A stretch of 64,000 nt of DNA from Rhodothermales bacterium (GCA_965207385.1 CBDBLZ010000008.1:3347-67346); one strand, 5' to 3'; counted from the stretch's first letter, positions 2 to 10,350 are shown. Notes: generated by a model from the sequence alone, not told the origin. Made by a program: numbers and translations.

Positions 2-1024
2 TCCGCCACGACCCTCGCAGAAGGCACGGAGCAGGTGCGTCGCATTCAGGACTTCCATCAAAACGGGCGCGGATGGCGAGATATCGGCTACCAGTTCCTG
101 ATGGATCAGGAGGGGCGGCTGTACCAGGGCCGGCCCTTCCTTCGCAATGTTCCGTTTTCAGACGGGCCACCCCTTGCGCACGGTGCGCACGTAGGGGGAG
201 CCAATACTGGCAACATAGGGGTGTCCTTGATGGGCTGCTACCATCCCCCGGAAGGCAGCGGGTGCCTGGACGAGATGACGCAACCGGCACTGGATTCGCT
301 GCTGGTCGTGTTTGCTTTCCTGTCAGAGAGGTACGGTCCTGCGCCAGGTGATATCGGTGGCCATCGAGATTTCAGTGCTACAGCTTGCCCGGGAGACAAC
401 AACTACCGCCAGCTGCCAGATATTCGCGCGGCGGTACAGGACCTGCTCATTACTGGCAACGCCACGCTCGGATCTGCCACCCTTGCGGCTCGCGCAGATT
501 CCGAGGGCCTGGTAACCGTGGAATGGACTTTCACTGCGAACCACGGGATCCAGGAAATCCGGATTGATCGCCTCTCTGCTAACTCCTCGTCGGTGGTCTA
601 TACCAGTACGACGGCAGAGGACGGTCGCATTGTGGATACCGAAATCACGGCGGTAGGACCCATTACATACGCACTGAGCGTGCGAGGCAGCCGTGGCAGG
701 GAGCAAATCCTCGGGACCTACGAGCTAACGGTCGAGGCGCCGGAAGATTTTGTGCTGGCGCAGAACTTCCCCAATCCCGCAAGTGGAAGCACATCCATCC
801 GCTATTTCCTCACGCAGCCCGGCCTTGTATCCCTGGAAGTATTCGATGCCGCAGGCCGCAGGATTGCCACGCTGGAAGACGCCTACCGCGAAGAGGACCG
901 GTGGCACGTGGCGGAGCTAGATACGCGTGACCTGGCCGGTGGCATCTATTTCTACCGCGTGACCCTTGATGGTTTTGCGGGTGTGGTGCACAACACCGTG
1001 AATCCGCTGATCGTGGTGCGGTAG
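2..1024 (+). CDS. N-acetylmuramoyl-L-alanine amidase (PGRP/Amidase_2 domain) with T9SS C-terminal sorting domain; 5' end runs off the window
   Basis: The reading frame is open from nt 2. It carries PGRP/Amidase_2-like motifs GWRDIGYQFLMDQEGRLYQGRP and GHRDFSATACPG. The C-terminal ~90 aa (nt ~749-1021) read NFPNPASGSTSIRYFL...GIYFYRVTL, typical of the T9SS type-A sorting domain. Confidence 0.85.
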   Translation, partial: SATTLAEGTEQVRRIQDFHQNGRGWRDIGYQFLMDQEGRLYQGRPFLRNVPFSDGPPLAHGAHVGGANTGNIGVSLMGCYHPPEGSGCLDEMTQPALDSLLVVFAFLSERYGPAPGDIGGHRDFSATACPGDNNYRQLPDIRAAVQDLLITGNATLGSATLAARADSEGLVTVEWTFTANHGIQEIRIDRLSANSSSVVYTSTTAEDGRIVDTEITAVGPITYALSVRGSRGREQILGTYELTVEAPEDFVLAQNFPNPASGSTSIRYFLTQPGLVSLEVFDAAGRRIATLEDAYREEDRWHVAELDTRDLAGGIYFYRVTLDGFAGVVHNTVNPLIVVR

Positions 1025-4196: not shown

Positions 4197-4711
4197 CTGA
4201 TCAATGGGCATCAGGTCCAAGCGCGCGCGATGATCGCGCATGCTGCAGGCGAAGCGCCGCAAGAGCCAGGGAATACGACCACAACGGGCCCACAGAGGGC
4301 GTATGTCTCCAACTGCCAAACCGAAATCCGTCGGCGTGCGTGGCCTCCACTATCGCTGTCTTGCGTCCAAGGCCACAAGTTACCGGATCTGACGTGGTGC
4401 GCTCTTCCATTCAGAATAGCAGCCCTTGATTGCTCGCAATCCACACCCGCTTGCCGACCAATGGCAGGACATTCAGTAGGGACCGTTTCCGTCAATCGCC
4501 TGCGTCTCGATTCCCATTTGAGTGAATCTATCGATGTCCGAATCGGCGAGGCATTCGCAAAGGGCTCTTCGCTCAAGCACAACTTCGGCGGGGAATGCAC
4601 ACACGCTGACCTGCATCTCGATAAAGCTGTGACCATAATCGATGCGCCTCGGAAGAGTATATTCCGCACCGCGAAGAGAACCCCCGCGGCCAGCGAAGCC
4701 AGCTCTGCAGC

Positions 4712-5710
4712 TCAAACAAGGGATAAGCTCATCCCGACACGCTCGGCCACGGCCTGTGCGAGTGCCCGGAAGTCGCGATAGCACCCCTGTACCGCGGCGA
4801 CGTGCCCACCGAGAGCACCATCGGCCGGCTTGAGCGCGAACATGGGCTTTCTGGCTTCCTGCGCAAGCGGCATTAGGCTGCGGTAGTGCTTGAGGTTAGC
4901 GAGACAATTCGGATCCTGATCTATTTCGAGATCCACCGAAGGCGCACTCGCACCGACCACTGACTCCTCGTAGACAGCGGGAATTCGCGCCATCCATCGA
5001 CCATAGGCCTTCACCGGACGATCCAGGCGAGTTGCGTGCTGCATGACAACATAGCCGATGGGGCGCATTGCACCCTCCGGCATGGCAAGGTCAGCGACGG
5101 GGTTGCGCTCGCGCCTCTCGCTCCATTCGCGCTGCCAGCGACGGAGAGTCGGCCCCAGGTTACGGAGGCCTTGAAGTGAATAGAGATCGGGAGCCAGTGG
5201 AACGACGACCGAATCGGCCGTGACGAGGGCAGCGCGGTTGAAAGCCCCCAAGTTCGGCCCCACGTCCACCAGAATCAGCTCTGCTCCGATCTGCTTAGCT
5301 CCCTGCCTCAGGATGCGGGCAAGCGCGGAGAGAACCCGAAAGGCTCGACGCTTTCGGTCCAGGCACGCAGGCCACTGACTTGAGAGTTCGTCCTCGGCGT
5401 CGGCAAGAAGGAGATCTCCTATTACGAGTCCAAGTCCGAGCTCTGGCTTTATTACTCGAGGGGCAACCACATCGCCAGTACCCTCAAGGAGCGGACGGAG
5501 CGCACCGTATACGGTATGCCGCTCCCCGCTGTCTCGCCAATGCCTCTCCAACTCCTCATCGTCGAGAAACATGCTCGTCAAATTGGCCTGGGGGTCGAGA
5601 TCCGCGGCCAGTACGTTCACACCGAGGCGGGCGTACATCCAGGCGAGGTGGTAGACCAGCGAAGTCTTTCCGACACCGCCCTTGTTATTGAAGAAGGCAA
5701 TCGTAATCAC
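4712..5710 (-). CDS. ParA/MinD-type P-loop ATPase (332 aa), no ParB partner
   Basis: Deviant Walker A FFNNKGGVGKTS followed by LAADLDPQANLT. Its start overlaps the stop of the upstream AlbA_2 gene by 4 nt (5707-5710). Confidence 0.85.
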   Translation of the reverse strand: MITIAFFNNKGGVGKTSLVYHLAWMYARLGVNVLAADLDPQANLTSMFLDDEELERHWRDSGERHTVYGALRPLLEGTGDVVAPRVIKPELGLGLVIGDLLLADAEDELSSQWPACLDRKRRAFRVLSALARILRQGAKQIGAELILVDVGPNLGAFNRAALVTADSVVVPLAPDLYSLQGLRNLGPTLRRWQREWSERRERNPVADLAMPEGAMRPIGYVVMQHATRLDRPVKAYGRWMARIPAVYEESVVGASAPSVDLEIDQDPNCLANLKHYRSLMPLAQEARKPMFALKPADGALGGHVAAVQGCYRDFRALAQAVAERVGMSLSLV

Positions 5711-6996
5711 AGGACCGCCCTCACAGTAACAGCAACGTGTGTAGGCTGAAGATCGAACTCCGGCTTCGGATTGCCGTTCTGCGCCAGCTCCTTGCGAGCA
5801 AGCGGTACTCCAAGGCCGAAACGTTGCGCAAAACCAAGATGGTGCATGATTTCGGCAACAAGTGGATTCCGGTAGTCAGTCGTTCCCTCGCCGAAATTCT
5901 CCTGGTTCACCTGACCGAATAGTCCACCGGGATTCTGAATCTCCACCCGGTCGGAAAACCAGTAAATGCGCACAGGTGCATTGGTGCCCTCGTAGCTTCG
6001 ATGCATTACTGCGTTTCGCGAGAGCTGCTGGAGCGCTATCAGCGGATAGTCGGGCGCATGTTTTTCTAAGGTCGTCGTCGCGACCTCTGTGCGGACCGAA
6101 ATGTTCAGTCGCAGGAGTTCCTCCAACTGCCGCAGCACATCGTCGATCCTCCCGGTAAGCCTTTTCTGATCTCGGATCGGGTCCGTGATCTCTGTGCCGT
6201 CAACGCGGAGAAACTGCACATACGCCCCAGGTACCCAGCCCTGGGGATCCCGCCCGAGACCCAGAAGCGCGCCCCAGGTCGGCACATCACCCACGAGCAT
6301 ACGCAGCGACCGGAGCTGCTGATTCAAAGACCGATTGTTGTCCTCCAGAATCTCCGGAGCGATTGCCTGTGGCAGGAATTGGGTCCTGACATACTCTACA
6401 TTGAGATCATTAATCGAGGCGTCCGGCGCCGGACGCTGATCAAAGGGCAGCTCACCGGCGCGTCGGCGCTCGCTAAGCCGCTGCTCTTCCTCGAGAGTGG
6501 CCTGACGCAATGTCGGGCCAACTCTCACCCAGGCTCGTCCTCGAAAGCGTACGGGCGGACTCCGTGATGGCTCGACCAGTATTACAGCGACTTCGCATCC
6601 CGAGTACACATGTTTCTGGACGACAAGAGACGGTGTGGGAATAATGGTCCCATCGTCCTTCATGCCAGCAAGTTCTTTCAAGAGCTGGTCGTCGATCGTT
6701 GTGTCGGCGCATTCACCGTTGTCCTCGACACCAATGAAGATTGCCCCGGGCAGGCCATGGCCTGGAAGATCGTTGGCGAGAGCGCAGATATTTCGCCGAA
6801 GTTTCTTGGAGTCGGAGGCGGAACGCTTTCGCTCGACCCGGTCGGACTCGAGATCAACCAGCAATCGGTTAAGTTCGCGCGTGTTCAACGGATATGTCCT
6901 TAGTCCCTCCAGTCTCTTGCGTATCCGCGGAAAGATACCGATGATGCGGCTAAGCTCAAAGGCCCGGTCACTCAAGGAGGTACGGGCGAATGGCAT
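5707..6996 (-). CDS. AlbA_2 (Schlafen-like divergent AAA) + HATPase_c_4 domain protein, annotated in databases as putative DNA-binding/ATP-binding protein
   Basis: The N-terminal region reads ESDRVERKRS...RNICALANDLPG...IFIGVEDNG. The C-terminal region reads NAVMHRSYEGTNAPVRIYWFSDRVEIQNPGGL...DYRNPLVAEIMHHLGFAQRFGLGV. Both architectures were recognised by eye. Confidence 0.75.
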   Translation of the reverse strand: MPFARTSLSDRAFELSRIIGIFPRIRKRLEGLRTYPLNTRELNRLLVDLESDRVERKRSASDSKKLRRNICALANDLPGHGLPGAIFIGVEDNGECADTTIDDQLLKELAGMKDDGTIIPTPSLVVQKHVYSGCEVAVILVEPSRSPPVRFRGRAWVRVGPTLRQATLEEEQRLSERRRAGELPFDQRPAPDASINDLNVEYVRTQFLPQAIAPEILEDNNRSLNQQLRSLRMLVGDVPTWGALLGLGRDPQGWVPGAYVQFLRVDGTEITDPIRDQKRLTGRIDDVLRQLEELLRLNISVRTEVATTTLEKHAPDYPLIALQQLSRNAVMHRSYEGTNAPVRIYWFSDRVEIQNPGGLFGQVNQENFGEGTTDYRNPLVAEIMHHLGFAQRFGLGVPLARKELAQNGNPKPEFDLQPTHVAVTVRAVL

Positions 6997-7248: not shown

Positions 7249-7632
7249 CTACCGATTTGCGTCCGCCCTTGTTACCCGTATTCGGACAGGCGAGGTGCCA
7301 TCATCGCCGAGCTCAGAGACCGTACCAGTAATAATTCGCACCGGCCGGCTTGCGACAGCGGCTTCGTACTGGCTTAGCTTGCCCGTCCATTCAACATCAA
7401 GTGCGACCCGCTCAGGCAGCCGCTCAGCGGCGGAAGCAGGTAATACTGTTACGCGTACGCTGTCGCCTATCCGATTGAAAGTCACTGTAATCGGATGCTT
7501 AGCCGCTTCTGTAGCTTCAAGGTCCGGGACGGAGGCGCCCCCCGCTGCAGCTTCTTCCGCGACGAGGGATTCGACGCCCGTCTCGCATCCGAGCACAAGC
7601 AATCCAAGCACGGCAAACATTGCGAAGCGCAT
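7249..7632 (-). CDS. small lipoprotein, unknown function
   Basis: The track ORF was trimmed to ATG 7632. The N-terminus MRFAMFAVLGLLVLGC is a lipobox-type signal. No family was recognised. Confidence 0.55.
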   Translation of the reverse strand: MRFAMFAVLGLLVLGCETGVESLVAEEAAAGGASVPDLEATEAAKHPITVTFNRIGDSVRVTVLPASAAERLPERVALDVEWTGKLSQYEAAVASRPVRIITGTVSELGDDGTSPVRIRVTRADANR

Positions 7633-7857
7633 GAGCAGGCCTCCGATAGGCAAGTGGATTGAGATTGGATGAAGCACGGGCCGGCAAGTTCCGTGCGTCT
7701 ATTCCTGTTTGACGGGCCCTGCGCGTCCTGACGGTGCCGAATCGAACACCTCTGACCGGAGCCAGTGCCTCCGGTGGACCGTGTCTTGCGATGACGCGTC
7801 TCGACCCCGGAGAATCGGCCGCGACGCGCTCACTTCGTGACATAATTGACGGGCGCT

Positions 7858-9024
7858 TCAGATTCGATTCGGTTTCTTCGGCAGACCAAGTACGTAACTT
7901 GTGCTGCGGCCTCCGCCCGGCGCCTTTTCGAGCACTCCCTTCGTGATCAGGCTATTGATGTCTCGAAGCGCGGTGTCCGGCGAGCATTTTGCAATCCTTG
8001 CCCATTTCGACGATGTCATCTTGCCTTCAAATCCGTCTAGAAGGCGATTTAGCATTTTCACCTGGCGCGGATTGAAGGGCACCTGGGCGCAGTCTCGCCA
8101 AAAGCGGGCTTTCTGCAGCACGCCACCAACTGCATGATCCGCTCCATCAAGGGCCCGGCCAAGGCAGTCAAGGAACCAGTAGAGCCAGAGCGTTACATCC
8201 AGGTCGCCTTTCTGTGTGCGTTCAAGGATTCCGTAGTACGCCTTGCGCTCCCGCCGGATTTGCGCCGACATGCTGTAAAAGCGCCGCGCACTGCCTTCGG
8301 ATCGAGCCAGCGCCATATCGGCAATGGCCCGTGCAATGCGCCCGTTTCCGTCCTCGAACGGGTGAATCGTGACAAACCACAGGTGTGCGATGGCGGCAGC
8401 AATCAGCGGGTGGCTGCCCCCGCGCCGCTCAAACCAGTCCAGAAACGTGTCCATCTCAGATTCGATGCGATCCGATGTCGGGGCGTGGAAATGAACCCGC
8501 TCCCGTCCGACGGCTCCGGATACGACCTGCATCGGGCCGGAACGTTCATCTCGCCATGCTCCGACCACGATCCGACGTAGGTCTGAGTGCCCGGAGGGAA
8601 AAAGGGCCGCATGCCAGCCAAACAGCCGCGCGGCAGTAAGGGGCCGGTCATAGCCGCGGGTTGCATCAAGCGCCATTGCTACGACGCCTTCCACTTCCCG
8701 GTCGGACTCCACCAGGGCCCCTGTATCAAGGCCAAGCCGCCGCGCAATGGACGAGCGTACTTGGTCTCCATCAAGGATTGCACCCTCAATCTCGCTGGTT
8801 TTTACGACATCCATCGTCAGGGTAAGCAGTTCGGCTTCGTTTCCCAAATCGAATCCGATGCCATCCATGCGACCGAGCAGCTGGCCCTGCTTGTAGCAGA
8901 CGGTGGCCAGCTTTTCCGTCAGCGCCGAATCATCCCACCGGAAGTCTGGCCAACCTGATAGTTCGTGTATATAGGTCACTGAATTCGAGTCCCGTGCGGA
9001 GATTACATGCCGCAATACCCGCAT
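7858..9024 (-). CDS. Fic family protein (AMPylase-type), class II with internal inhibitory helix and C-terminal winged-helix
   Basis: Fic active-site motif HPFEDGNGRIARA (HxFx[D/E]GNGRxxR). Upstream inhibitory motif TSEIEG ([S/T]xxxE[G/N]). N-terminal YIHELSGWPDFRWD is typical of Fic_N. Confidence 0.9.
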   Translation of the reverse strand: MRVLRHVISARDSNSVTYIHELSGWPDFRWDDSALTEKLATVCYKQGQLLGRMDGIGFDLGNEAELLTLTMDVVKTSEIEGAILDGDQVRSSIARRLGLDTGALVESDREVEGVVAMALDATRGYDRPLTAARLFGWHAALFPSGHSDLRRIVVGAWRDERSGPMQVVSGAVGRERVHFHAPTSDRIESEMDTFLDWFERRGGSHPLIAAAIAHLWFVTIHPFEDGNGRIARAIADMALARSEGSARRFYSMSAQIRRERKAYYGILERTQKGDLDVTLWLYWFLDCLGRALDGADHAVGGVLQKARFWRDCAQVPFNPRQVKMLNRLLDGFEGKMTSSKWARIAKCSPDTALRDINSLITKGVLEKAPGGGRSTSYVLGLPKKPNRI

Positions 9025-9447: not shown

Positions 9448-10350
9448 CTAGAAGCTGTCCACCTGCCGGTAGGCCTCTATAAGAGCTGCCTCCCCGTCCT
9501 TGCCGGGCATCATGTTGCCATGCTCCATGCCCAGCACACCACTGAAGCCTTTCTCGTGGATGTGCTTGAAAACGTTGAGGTAGTTGATTTCCCCGGTAGT
9601 CGGCTCCTTGCGTCCCGGATTGTCTCCAATCTGGAAATAGGCGATTTCGTCCCAGGCAGCATCGATGTTCGGAATCAGGTTTCCTTCCGTGATCTGCTGG
9701 TGGTACAGGTCATTCAGAATCTTGCACGCAGGGCTGTCAACGGCCCTGCATATTTCGTAGGCCTGCGGAATCTTCGTCAGGAACAGCCCGGGGTGGTTTC
9801 TCGGATTTAGCGGCTCCAGCACCATGACCAGGCCGTGCGGCTCCAGTATGTCGCACGCCCCGCGCAGCGCCTCCACCACGTTCACGGTCTGGTAGCCCAT
9901 ATCGAGCCTGAGATCCACGTGGCCAGGCACGACGGTCATCCAGGTCGCATTGACCCGCTTTGCGACCTCCACGGACTCCCCTATCTCCTTCAGGAACTGC
10001 TGCCTTGCATCGGCGCTGCCGCTGGCAAGATTGGCCTCCCTCCACGAAATGGAATGGGCCACGAACACGCCCATCTGCATGCCGCGCTGCTCCATGGCAT
10101 TCGCAATGCGCTCCTGGGTCTGCACGCTCCGCCCTTTCATGCCGTTGTCTTCCCAGGCTGTGAAGCCCTGGTCAGCGGCGAACAGGATCTGGTCCACCAG
10201 GTCCTCGCCGGCGTGGTGGCTGAACATGCCAAAATGCGGAGCATACTTCAAATTGAATGCGCTCTGCGGTGAAGTGGAGGCAACAGGCACACACCCAAGT
10301 GCTCCCGCTGCTGCCGTTTTGACGAAGTGTCTGCGATCCATATTAGGCAT
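9448..10350 (-). CDS. Tat-exported TIM-barrel protein, hydroxypyruvate isomerase / xylose isomerase-like family
   Basis: Twin-arginine signal MDRRHFVKTAAAGALG. Hyi-like C-terminus YFQIGDNPGRKEPTTGEINY...GMEHG. Confidence 0.85.
   Translation of the reverse strand: MPNMDRRHFVKTAAAGALGCVPVASTSPQSAFNLKYAPHFGMFSHHAGEDLVDQILFAADQGFTAWEDNGMKGRSVQTQERIANAMEQRGMQMGVFVAHSISWREANLASGSADARQQFLKEIGESVEVAKRVNATWMTVVPGHVDLRLDMGYQTVNVVEALRGACDILEPHGLVMVLEPLNPRNHPGLFLTKIPQAYEICRAVDSPACKILNDLYHQQITEGNLIPNIDAAWDEIAYFQIGDNPGRKEPTTGEINYLNVFKHIHEKGFSGVLGMEHGNMMPGKDGEAALIEAYRQVDSF

Follow-up and report, generated by a model that had tools for sequence, protein, structure and literature searches.

The present study examined two overlapping genes on the minus strand of a 64,000-nucleotide stretch of DNA from a Rhodothermales bacterium (GCA_965207385.1, CBDBLZ010000008.1:3347-67346), hereafter the window, in which all positions are counted. 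Gene A encodes a protein in which a Schlafen (AlbA_2) domain, a linker domain and a GHKL-type ATPase domain follow one another, and gene B, directly downstream, encodes a ParA/MinD-type ATPase. A first-pass annotation of the window had singled out the two genes as a candidate uncharacterised two-gene system. The analysis reported here supports that proposal through the co-conservation of the genes, their translational coupling, their distribution outside plasmids and their defence-gene neighbours; a defence function for the pair is probable rather than established. The features of the pair are as follows.

5707..6996, minus strand: gene A, Schlafen(AlbA_2)-linker-GHKL ATPase ("Schlatpase"), 429-aa open reading frame (ORF) from an ATG at 6996
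6499..6849, minus strand: SLFN_AlbA_2 (PF04326) nuclease domain of A, residues 50-166 (Pfam, E 1e-12)
5980..6498, minus strand: middle (linker) domain of A, residues ~167-339 (PADLOC matches of the prokaryotic Argonaute [pAgo] type)
5725..5979, minus strand: GHKL-type HATPase_c_4 (PF13749) domain of A, residues 340-424 (Pfam, E 7e-19)
5707..5710, minus strand: GTGA stop/start overlap, site of translational coupling from A to B (sequence)
4712..5710, minus strand: gene B, ParA/MinD deviant-Walker-A ATPase, 332 aa, GTG start (ORF list and Pfam)
5660..5689, minus strand: deviant Walker A motif of B, N8-N-K10-G-G-V-G-K15-T-S17 (FNNKGGVGKTS with the preceding F; translation)
4802..4891, minus strand: subfamily-signature C-terminal element of B, K274-H-Y-R-S-L-M-P-L-A-Q-E-A-R-K-P-M-F...D-G-A-L-G-G-H303, (near-)invariant in homologues

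The coordinates and the 4-nt overlap agreed with those annotated in the first pass, and both genes are on the minus strand. The A/B junction in the window reads ...GTC CTG TGA / GTG ATT ACG..., and the two genes form a self-contained operon of ~2.2 kb. The length of 429 aa given for A was not retained. We consider the ORF to be over-extended because homologues of A are mostly 393-397 aa long, residues 1-34 had a predicted local distance difference test score (pLDDT) <50 in the AlphaFold2 (AF2) model, and translation from the in-frame TTG of position 6888, which follows the Shine-Dalgarno-like sequence AAGGA, gives a protein of 393 aa. The true start of A is, therefore, probably this TTG.

The Schlafen domain of A was modelled confidently by AF2 (pLDDT 83-92), and the linker domain had a pLDDT of 57-87. 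A Foldseek search with A returned the Corynebacterium diphtheriae structure 3lmm (DIP2311) first, followed by mammalian SLFN12/11/14/5/13 and the SAMD9 tRNase domain. The linker gave a match to the PADLOC pAgo model (residues 150-362, E 1e-9), residues 170-408 matched the PADLOC model Aga_SIR2-PNTD1-PNTD2 (E 2e-14), and the GHKL region matched 3lmm by sequence. The Schlafen motif is E50-x4-E55-x-K57, plus D92, and the spacing of E50, E55 and K57 is that of the E17-D22-K24 catalytic triad of CbCash (PMC13462974). Conservation was counted across 68 intact A-B pairs, in which E50, E55 and K57 were kept in 66, 68 and 66 sequences, respectively. The N-box asparagine of the GHKL domain is N328, located just upstream of the Pfam HATPase_c_4 span, and N328, H332, R333, Y335, P356-G357 and G394/G396 were invariant (68/68). 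Neither Pfam nor the homologue alignment revealed a C-terminal winged helix-turn-helix (wHTH) domain in A or its clade.

Protein B matched AAA_31 (E 2e-26) and CbiA (E 1e-12) in Pfam and carries the DxDPQ and hhhD motifs of the ParA/MinD superfamily. In its P-loop, the signature lysine K10 and K15 were each kept in 65/68 sequences and T16 in 68/68, while the DxD and Walker B aspartates D37, D39 and D149 were invariant (68/68). The AF2 model of B (pLDDT 81, predicted template modelling score 0.86) had 3pg5 (DIP2308) as its first Foldseek match, with template modelling (TM) scores of 0.69/0.76, followed by Soj/ParA, at a probability of 1.00; TM scores normalised to the target reached 0.79. The sequence of B also matched PDB 3pg5 over its full length (E 3e-31, and E 7e-36 with a profile). 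B is, thus, a member of the ParA/MinD superfamily and of its 3pg5 (DIP2308) subfamily. ParA/MinD proteins cycle through ATP-sandwich dimers, and because K10, K15, D37, D39 and D149 are conserved, a cycle of this kind is expected for B by analogy. Purifying selection acts on all three predicted active sites of the pair (Schlafen, GHKL and ParA-type).

The first-pass annotation ascribed to B a long C-terminal extension, LKHYRSLMPLAQEARKPMF, which was rejected in the present study. The C-terminal element of B aligns with 3pg5 and with P0351, an ATPase linked to a SIR2 gene, and lies at the position of the canonical ParA/Soj element, which we take to be R-x-V-R-L-x-E-A-P-S-x-G-K-P (C-terminal helix and K-P loop). 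The ~80 residues that B has in addition to Soj are scattered internal insertions common to B and 3pg5.

Among solved structures, 3pg5 is the closest to B and 3lmm the closest to A; both represent uncharacterised structural-genomics proteins of C. diphtheriae. Based on Foldseek alignments, identity was about 25-30% between B and 3pg5 and <20% between A and 3lmm, which is longer at 583 aa. We found no functional literature on 3pg5/DIP2308. The two proteins were also considered as an adjacent pair in C. diphtheriae; this was discarded because the Schlafen-GHKL gene lies ~7 kb from the ATPase gene.

Homologues of both proteins are abundant. More than 8000 homologues of B were detected by shared words, the best 120 of which are 72-85% identical to it, and 4793 homologues of A were found. 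When GTDB species were scanned with one genome each, relatives of B were present in at least 591 species-representative genomes. The locus counts given hereafter rest on the best 80 B loci, which encode proteins with 59-85% identity to B and span more than 15 phyla, with members from Rhodothermales, Gemmatimonadota, Planctomycetota, Acidobacteriota, Chloroflexota, Cyanobacteria and Proteobacteria, as well as Spirochaetia, Actinobacteria, Nitrospirae, Elusimicrobia, Omnitrophota, Verrucomicrobiota and others. The closest homologue of B is encoded by a Rhodothermales metagenome-assembled genome (85% identity, L005), and cultured cyanobacterial carriers are Lyngbya sp. CCY1209 (L074) and Vasconcelosia minhoensis LEGE 07310 (L082).

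A homologue of A was located directly upstream of B on the same strand in 78/80 loci, and both A-centred look-ups (2/2, 63% identity) had B downstream with the same type of overlap. The co-conservation of the two genes, which had been proposed as a check on the pair, was, thus, observed from both sides. A 4-nt stop/start overlap was found in 74 of the 79 adjacent pairs (57 ATGA, 15 GTGA and 2 TTGA), which greatly exceeds what chance would produce and supports the co-translation suggested for the pair in the window. The distance matrices of A and B were correlated (r = 0.51), with none of 2000 Mantel permutations reaching this value. Furthermore, a natural fusion, P0373, carries SLFN_AlbA_2, HATPase_c_4 and AAA_31 in a single chain, the identical sequence of which was present on 7 contigs from 4 sources. 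Based on the pairing, the overlaps, the distance correlation and this fusion, we concluded that A and B are one evolutionary unit and almost certainly one functional unit. P0447 was rejected as a second A-B fusion because its middle is Arg-rich and frameshift-like, its P-loop is degenerate, and a single contig carries it.

Gene A was missing or damaged at several loci. An alpha/beta-hydrolase gene lies upstream of B in place of A at one locus (L036), and at another (L046), A has shrunk to a ~60-aa remnant (~9800-10000) beside an AbrB/PIN-like pair, with B intact. A is split or frameshifted in L010, L019 and L081, and B is intact in these loci. A divergent Schlafen-GHKL paralogue, ~25% identical to A, was noted directly downstream of B in L006 (5303-6382, plus strand), where the gene order is A-B-A'.

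Since the fold and motifs of ParA/Soj are fully present in B, and nucleic acid can be bound by AlbA-like domains, the Schlafen/AlbA-like protein A may be envisioned as the ParB-type adaptor of a non-canonical system for DNA partition or positioning. The data obtained largely refute this explanation, which we regard as very improbable. As stated in the first-pass annotation, no ParB gene, centromere-like repeats or replication genes were found near the pair in the window, where repeats were two-copy and at chance level, and the top 25 families tabulated for ORFs that flank the pair at the 80 loci included no ParB or replication domain. The proposal that homologues might be found mainly with parB or on plasmids was not borne out: only 7 of 72,556 PLSDB plasmid records had a relative of B, all with ≤33% identity and none with a Schlafen partner, and the family was nearly absent from phages (2 weak matches). 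The pair, thus, lacks the defining features of ParABS, namely, an adjacent ParB, centromere repeats and a plasmid location. Moreover, the gene order is adaptor-then-ATPase, A keeps its nuclease and GHKL sites, the A-B fusion P0373 exists, and sister clades of B pair with NADase-type effectors. We therefore rejected a partition system based on the absence of ParB and of repeats and on a family that is essentially missing from plasmids. One of the plasmid-borne relatives, on p1 of Vibrio campbellii (L085, 5989-8277; 33% identity, no Schlafen partner), adjoins genes for "mobile mystery protein A/B", of which B is Fic-like, and a type I restriction-modification (RM) system. Here, too, a member of the ATPase subfamily has mobile or defence-type neighbours.

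The clustering of all ORFs in the 80 loci did not reveal a third conserved gene. The pair was embedded inside an Hma operon in 10/80 loci; HmaA (SNF2-NOV_C helicase), HmaB (DUF1156 methylase) and HmaC (DUF499 ATPase) were neighbours in 9, 8 and 7 loci, respectively. Other recurrent neighbours were MmeI-type RM genes, DNA methylases, AAA_21/MAD3 ATPases, PDC-S01 and SoFic-like Fic genes. With regard to the check on proximity to defence genes that had been suggested, the recurrent neighbours of the pair among the top 25 families listed were defence genes only, the remaining nearest neighbours being unrelated housekeeping genes that each occurred once. Hma genes were absent from the window itself and from 70/80 loci, most of which had no recognisable defence neighbour at all. 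In two Planctomycetota loci (L003 and L012), HmaA is separated from the pair by a second AlbA_2-HATPase_c_4 gene, which is longer (546 aa), and by a DUF1156 fragment of 53 aa; this suggests rearrangement within the Hma locus. The distribution of the pair is patchy and incongruent with taxonomy, with 59-85% identity between unrelated phyla and no conserved flanks. The pair is probably one autonomous, horizontally mobile operon.

The HEC defence systems were discovered through their nesting within Hma. HEC-02 and HEC-03 are pairs of an ABC-ATPase and a NERD or PIN protein, both genes of which are required for defence. Their logic, one NTPase family with varied effectors, resembles that of the A-B pair; however, B belongs to the ParA/MinD (SIMIBI) class and is not an ABC ATPase. 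The A-B pair is not among the nine tested HECs, and the pair in the window matched none of the HEC-01 to HEC-09 models of PADLOC v2.0.0. Defence pairs of an NTPase and an interchangeable effector are also formed by HerA, an NTPase of the HerA/FtsK class, to which B does not belong, with SIR2 or DUF4297; no PADLOC model of such NTPase-plus-effector systems matched the pair.

A recent preprint defined the SLFN-GHKL "Schlatpase" supradomain (bioRxiv 10.64898/2026.05.29.728809). In the SLFN-pAgo protein RzAgo, the Schlafen domain cleaves tRNA, for which it needs the tetramerisation that is driven by ATP and the GHKL domain (bioRxiv 10.64898/2026.05.29.728809). Protein A has the same order of SLFN and GHKL (PF13749) domains and a common middle region; since all testable features were present in A, it is a Schlatpase of the SLFN-GHKL supradomain kind. 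In contrast to RzAgo, A lacks an Argonaute core and a wHTH and has a separate, coupled, ParA-like partner. SLFN-pAgos were stated to have no conserved linked partner, and the whole word "ParA" is absent from the paper on RzAgo (bioRxiv 10.64898/2026.05.29.728809). CbCash, a CRISPR-associated Schlafen tRNase with an E-D-K site, has the E-x4-(D/E)-x-K motif in common with A and is activated as an effector by regulated oligomerisation (PMC13462974). However, Cash differs from A in that it has a fused Csx15 cyclic tetra-adenylate (cA4) sensor as its regulator and neither a GHKL domain nor a ParA-like ATPase, and it is not linked to the A-B pair. On the ATPase side, B shares the KGGxGKT P-loop with its signature lysine and a Soj-like fold with ParA, Soj and MinD. 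It differs from the ATPases of ParABS and MinCDE in that it has no ParB, centromere or membrane-targeting partner; its partner is of the nuclease type, and the family is chromosomal.

Genes of the Schlafen-histidine-kinase-like-wHTH type occur inside BREX, DUF499 (Hma) and type I RM loci (bioRxiv 10.1101/2025.10.09.681413), and tabulations of what is nested in BREX, DISARM and type I RM systems list AlbA_2-HATPase_c_4 proteins as "FAM_00002" (bioRxiv 10.1101/2024.01.29.577857). These genes have the SLFN plus HATPase_c_4 core and the habit of nesting in Hma or RM loci in common with A. Since the sources often call such proteins transcriptional regulators and the pair itself lies within Hma operons at 10 loci, the pair may be an accessory that tunes the expression or activity of nearby RM, Hma or BREX-like systems and does not act autonomously. 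We consider this improbable. The embedded forms are single genes with a C-terminal HTH, whereas the A clade lacks the HTH and has a ParA-like gene, and most A-B copies are stand-alone islets, with no Hma genes in 70 loci. The invariance of the nuclease-type residues of A also argues against such an accessory.

The first-pass annotation did not recognise the pair as a named defence system, and this held true when PADLOC v2.0.0 and NCBIfam were consulted, neither of which recognised either protein as part of a system. A Schlatpase with a ParA-like ATPase was not described in the searchable literature, the coverage of which was incomplete but included the Schlafen and BREX papers of 2025-2026 and Payne et al. 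2024; similarly, no ParA-type partner of Schlafen or SIR2 proteins was found there. The pair is a candidate Schlafen-based defence system with an apparently new class of regulator.

The wider family of B provides information on how the pair may function. ATPases of the 3pg5 type fall into 529 clusters at 50% identity (E ≤ 1e-30). Sister ATPases with ~31% full-length identity to B, in which the MPLAQ...P motif is also present, were followed directly by a SIR2_2 gene of ~285 aa in 7/7 sampled contexts, which were from Actinobacteria and a Neorhizobium chromid. The junction was mostly an overlap or a gap of 0-1 nt, and the order was reversed from that of A-B, with the ATPase gene first. The SIR2_2 partners matched the ThsA, LmuA and Dsr models, and PADLOC v2 has no named system for the ATPase plus SIR2_2 pair. 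In addition, P0445 (545 aa, 5 contigs) combines the ATPase body, in which the P-loop is degenerate (NPHGAVGTT), with a C-terminal RES domain (Pfam E 2e-13). One NTPase family with interchangeable toxic effectors would be, by analogy, an architecture typical of immune systems. We tentatively propose, at slightly under even odds, that 3pg5-type ATPases are the common infection sensor or switch of a modular immune family with a Schlafen-GHKL tRNase, a SIR2 NADase or an NAD-depleting RES domain as effectors. This common switch may signal the condition of the nucleoid or of DNA that enters the cell.

Several side observations were made on this subfamily. Neighbours of the ATPase-SIR2_2 loci (L090, L092, L093, L094, L095 and L097/L098) include DUF3644, AAA_15/21 and KAP/NACHT-like genes; DUF3644 was termed a HEPN domain by Payne et al. 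(bioRxiv 10.1101/2024.01.29.577857). P0361 (595 aa, one contig) is B-like with a degenerate P-loop and a tail of ~265 aa that contains a PD...E-x-K-like motif (…SPDYVV…YAIEVKRL…). The tail had no Pfam match, the PD-(D/E)xK-like motif is unconfirmed, and P0361 may be a read-through product or a nuclease fusion. Longer ATPase matches (P0012, P0361, P0365, P0366 and P0412) were set aside because they carry no informative additional Pfam domain.

The RES and SIR2 domains of the sister modules are of the toxin type, the predicted effector A would be toxic, the genes form an overlapping mobile islet among housekeeping genes, and one locus lies beside an AbrB/PIN pair. These findings are also compatible with a toxin-antitoxin (TA) or addiction-type stress module, with A as a toxin that cleaves tRNA and B as its stoichiometric, ATP-dependent inhibitor, which would stabilise the islet or respond to stress. 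We consider such a module unlikely. The putative toxin is encoded first and coupled to a second, larger "antitoxin", and the order is reversed in the SIR2 pairs. In type II TA systems, a small, labile, DNA-binding antitoxin is encoded upstream of a small toxin; here, the predicted effector (393-429 aa) is upstream and its 332-aa ATPase partner has no HTH, ribbon-helix-helix or AbrB domain; B, thus, lacks a DNA-binding autoregulator domain, and its ATPase site is fully conserved. Embedding in Hma operons points to immunity. A TA function does not preclude one in abortive infection.

We propose that the A-B pair is a defence or abortive-infection-type module in which a Schlafen RNase is gated by a ParA-like ATP switch, and assign a probability of approximately 60% to this explanation. 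It is based on the near-constant pairing of the genes, the overlapping junctions, the distance correlation, the A-B fusion, the conserved active sites, the embedding in Hma operons, the defence neighbours, the swapping of effectors in sister clades, the lack of partition features and the validation of the effector family elsewhere. We infer the anti-phage phenotype from this evidence, and similarly infer the RNase activity, the tRNA target, the A-B complex and the nature of the cue. According to the proposed mechanism, A and B would be produced in coupled amounts and act as one complex. A would be the effector, a predicted metal-dependent Schlafen endoribonuclease with tRNA as its likely target, and the predicted binding of ATP to its GHKL domain would lead to oligomerisation and an active Schlafen nuclease. 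B would be the sensor or switch and form ATP-sandwich dimers. An infection cue, possibly a phage protein or a change in the DNA to which ParA-type dimers bind, would shift the nucleotide or dimer state of B, and the altered B would license the oligomerisation of A, resulting in tRNA cleavage and translation arrest. We slightly favour B as an activator or scaffold of A over B as a restraint on A because the effector is encoded first, the SIR2 pairs have the reversed order, and the RES fusion keeps the ATPase body with a dead P-loop.

A number of observations weigh against a defence module. No PADLOC or NCBIfam system model recognises A or B. The AF2 model of the GHKL part of A was poor and of low confidence. 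In the fusion P0373, the conserved K57 is replaced by T. The immediate neighbours of the pair were housekeeping genes in ~85% of loci, including the window; therefore, the enrichment in defence islands rests on a minority of loci. The 3pg5-type subfamily is not exclusively linked to effectors because its Corynebacterium branch is a standalone ATPase gene in a housekeeping context. Furthermore, the mean pairwise identity across phyla was 64% for B and 54% for A, which is unusually high for immune genes and could indicate a conserved cellular role.

Such a role may be a housekeeping function in nucleic acid metabolism, such as tRNA or RNA processing or chromosome-associated quality control, in which B positions A on the nucleoid. 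This explanation is kept alive mainly because of the unusually high sequence conservation; the chromosomal site among housekeeping genes and the standalone 3pg5 branch in Corynebacterium are also consistent with it. However, the patchy, taxonomy-incongruent distribution and the lack of conserved flanks argue against it, as do the decay or absence of A in L036, L046, L010, L019 and L081 and the sister clades that have SIR2 or RES as their effector instead. We therefore attach only a small probability to a housekeeping role and retain the defence module as the preferred explanation.

In the window, the pair is set between housekeeping genes together with a Fic gene and a small ORF. Further features near the pair are as follows.

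7858..9024, minus strand: DUF4172+Fic gene (Pfam), 861 nt upstream of the ATG of A; context
7249..7677, minus strand: 142-aa ORF between the Fic gene and A, with a signal-peptide-like N-terminus followed by Cys (…VLGLLVLGC…)
4682..4698, minus strand: weak terminator-like hairpin, 14 nt past the stop codon of B (consensus scan only)

The Fic gene matched the PADLOC SoFic model (E 1.4e-39, 134 bits) and scored 39.5 bits with the NCBIfam SoFic equivalog, for which the cutoff is 550; this score is far under the cutoff, and the gene is, therefore, a Fic/DUF4172 protein and not a SoFic equivalog. At four other loci (L005, L009, L025 and L043), Fic genes with varying orientations and N-terminal domains are likewise found beside the pair. 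The product of the 142-aa ORF looks like a lipoprotein from its N-terminal sequence; it had no Pfam, PADLOC or NCBIfam match and no recurring homologue beside the pair in the clustered loci. The hairpin may mark the end of the operon. The promoter and terminator consensus scan, which does not cover Rhodothermales-type promoters, gave site counts that were not above the shuffle expectation. At the edge of the window (35-1024, plus strand), we noted an ORF that, judged from its sequence, resembles an amidase or peptidoglycan recognition protein and ends in a C-terminal sorting signature of the type IX secretion system type, …FPNPASGSTSIRYF…. This ORF and the closest homologue of B (L005) both point to a Rhodothermales-like bacterium as the source of the window.

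The first-pass annotation placed the pair in a low-GC islet next to a Fic enzyme. The Fic gene is indeed nearby and a dip in GC content is present; however, the dip is only marginal. The GC content of the pair was 0.590 against a window mean of 0.616, a difference of 2.5 points or ~1.5 standard deviations, which is in the lowest 8% of same-size windows. No tRNA, integrase, repeat array or flanking direct repeats were found near the pair in the window. Low GC was, thus, rejected as a sign of foreign origin because the dip is too marginal and is not accompanied by a tRNA, an integrase or flanking direct repeats.

Schlafen nucleases were shown to function in bacterial immunity only in 2025-2026. 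The A-B pair is a well-defined unit of a putative regulator and effector, is very widespread and is highly conserved, and may serve to study the control of the many Schlafen-GHKL proteins that stand alone. If the proposed function is correct, the ParA/MinD switch family would extend from partition and positioning into immunity, and the SIR2 and RES sister modules would add one sensor family to the pattern of an NTPase with interchangeable effectors. According to the literature found, this would be the first partition-type, DNA-binding ATP switch that gates immune effectors.

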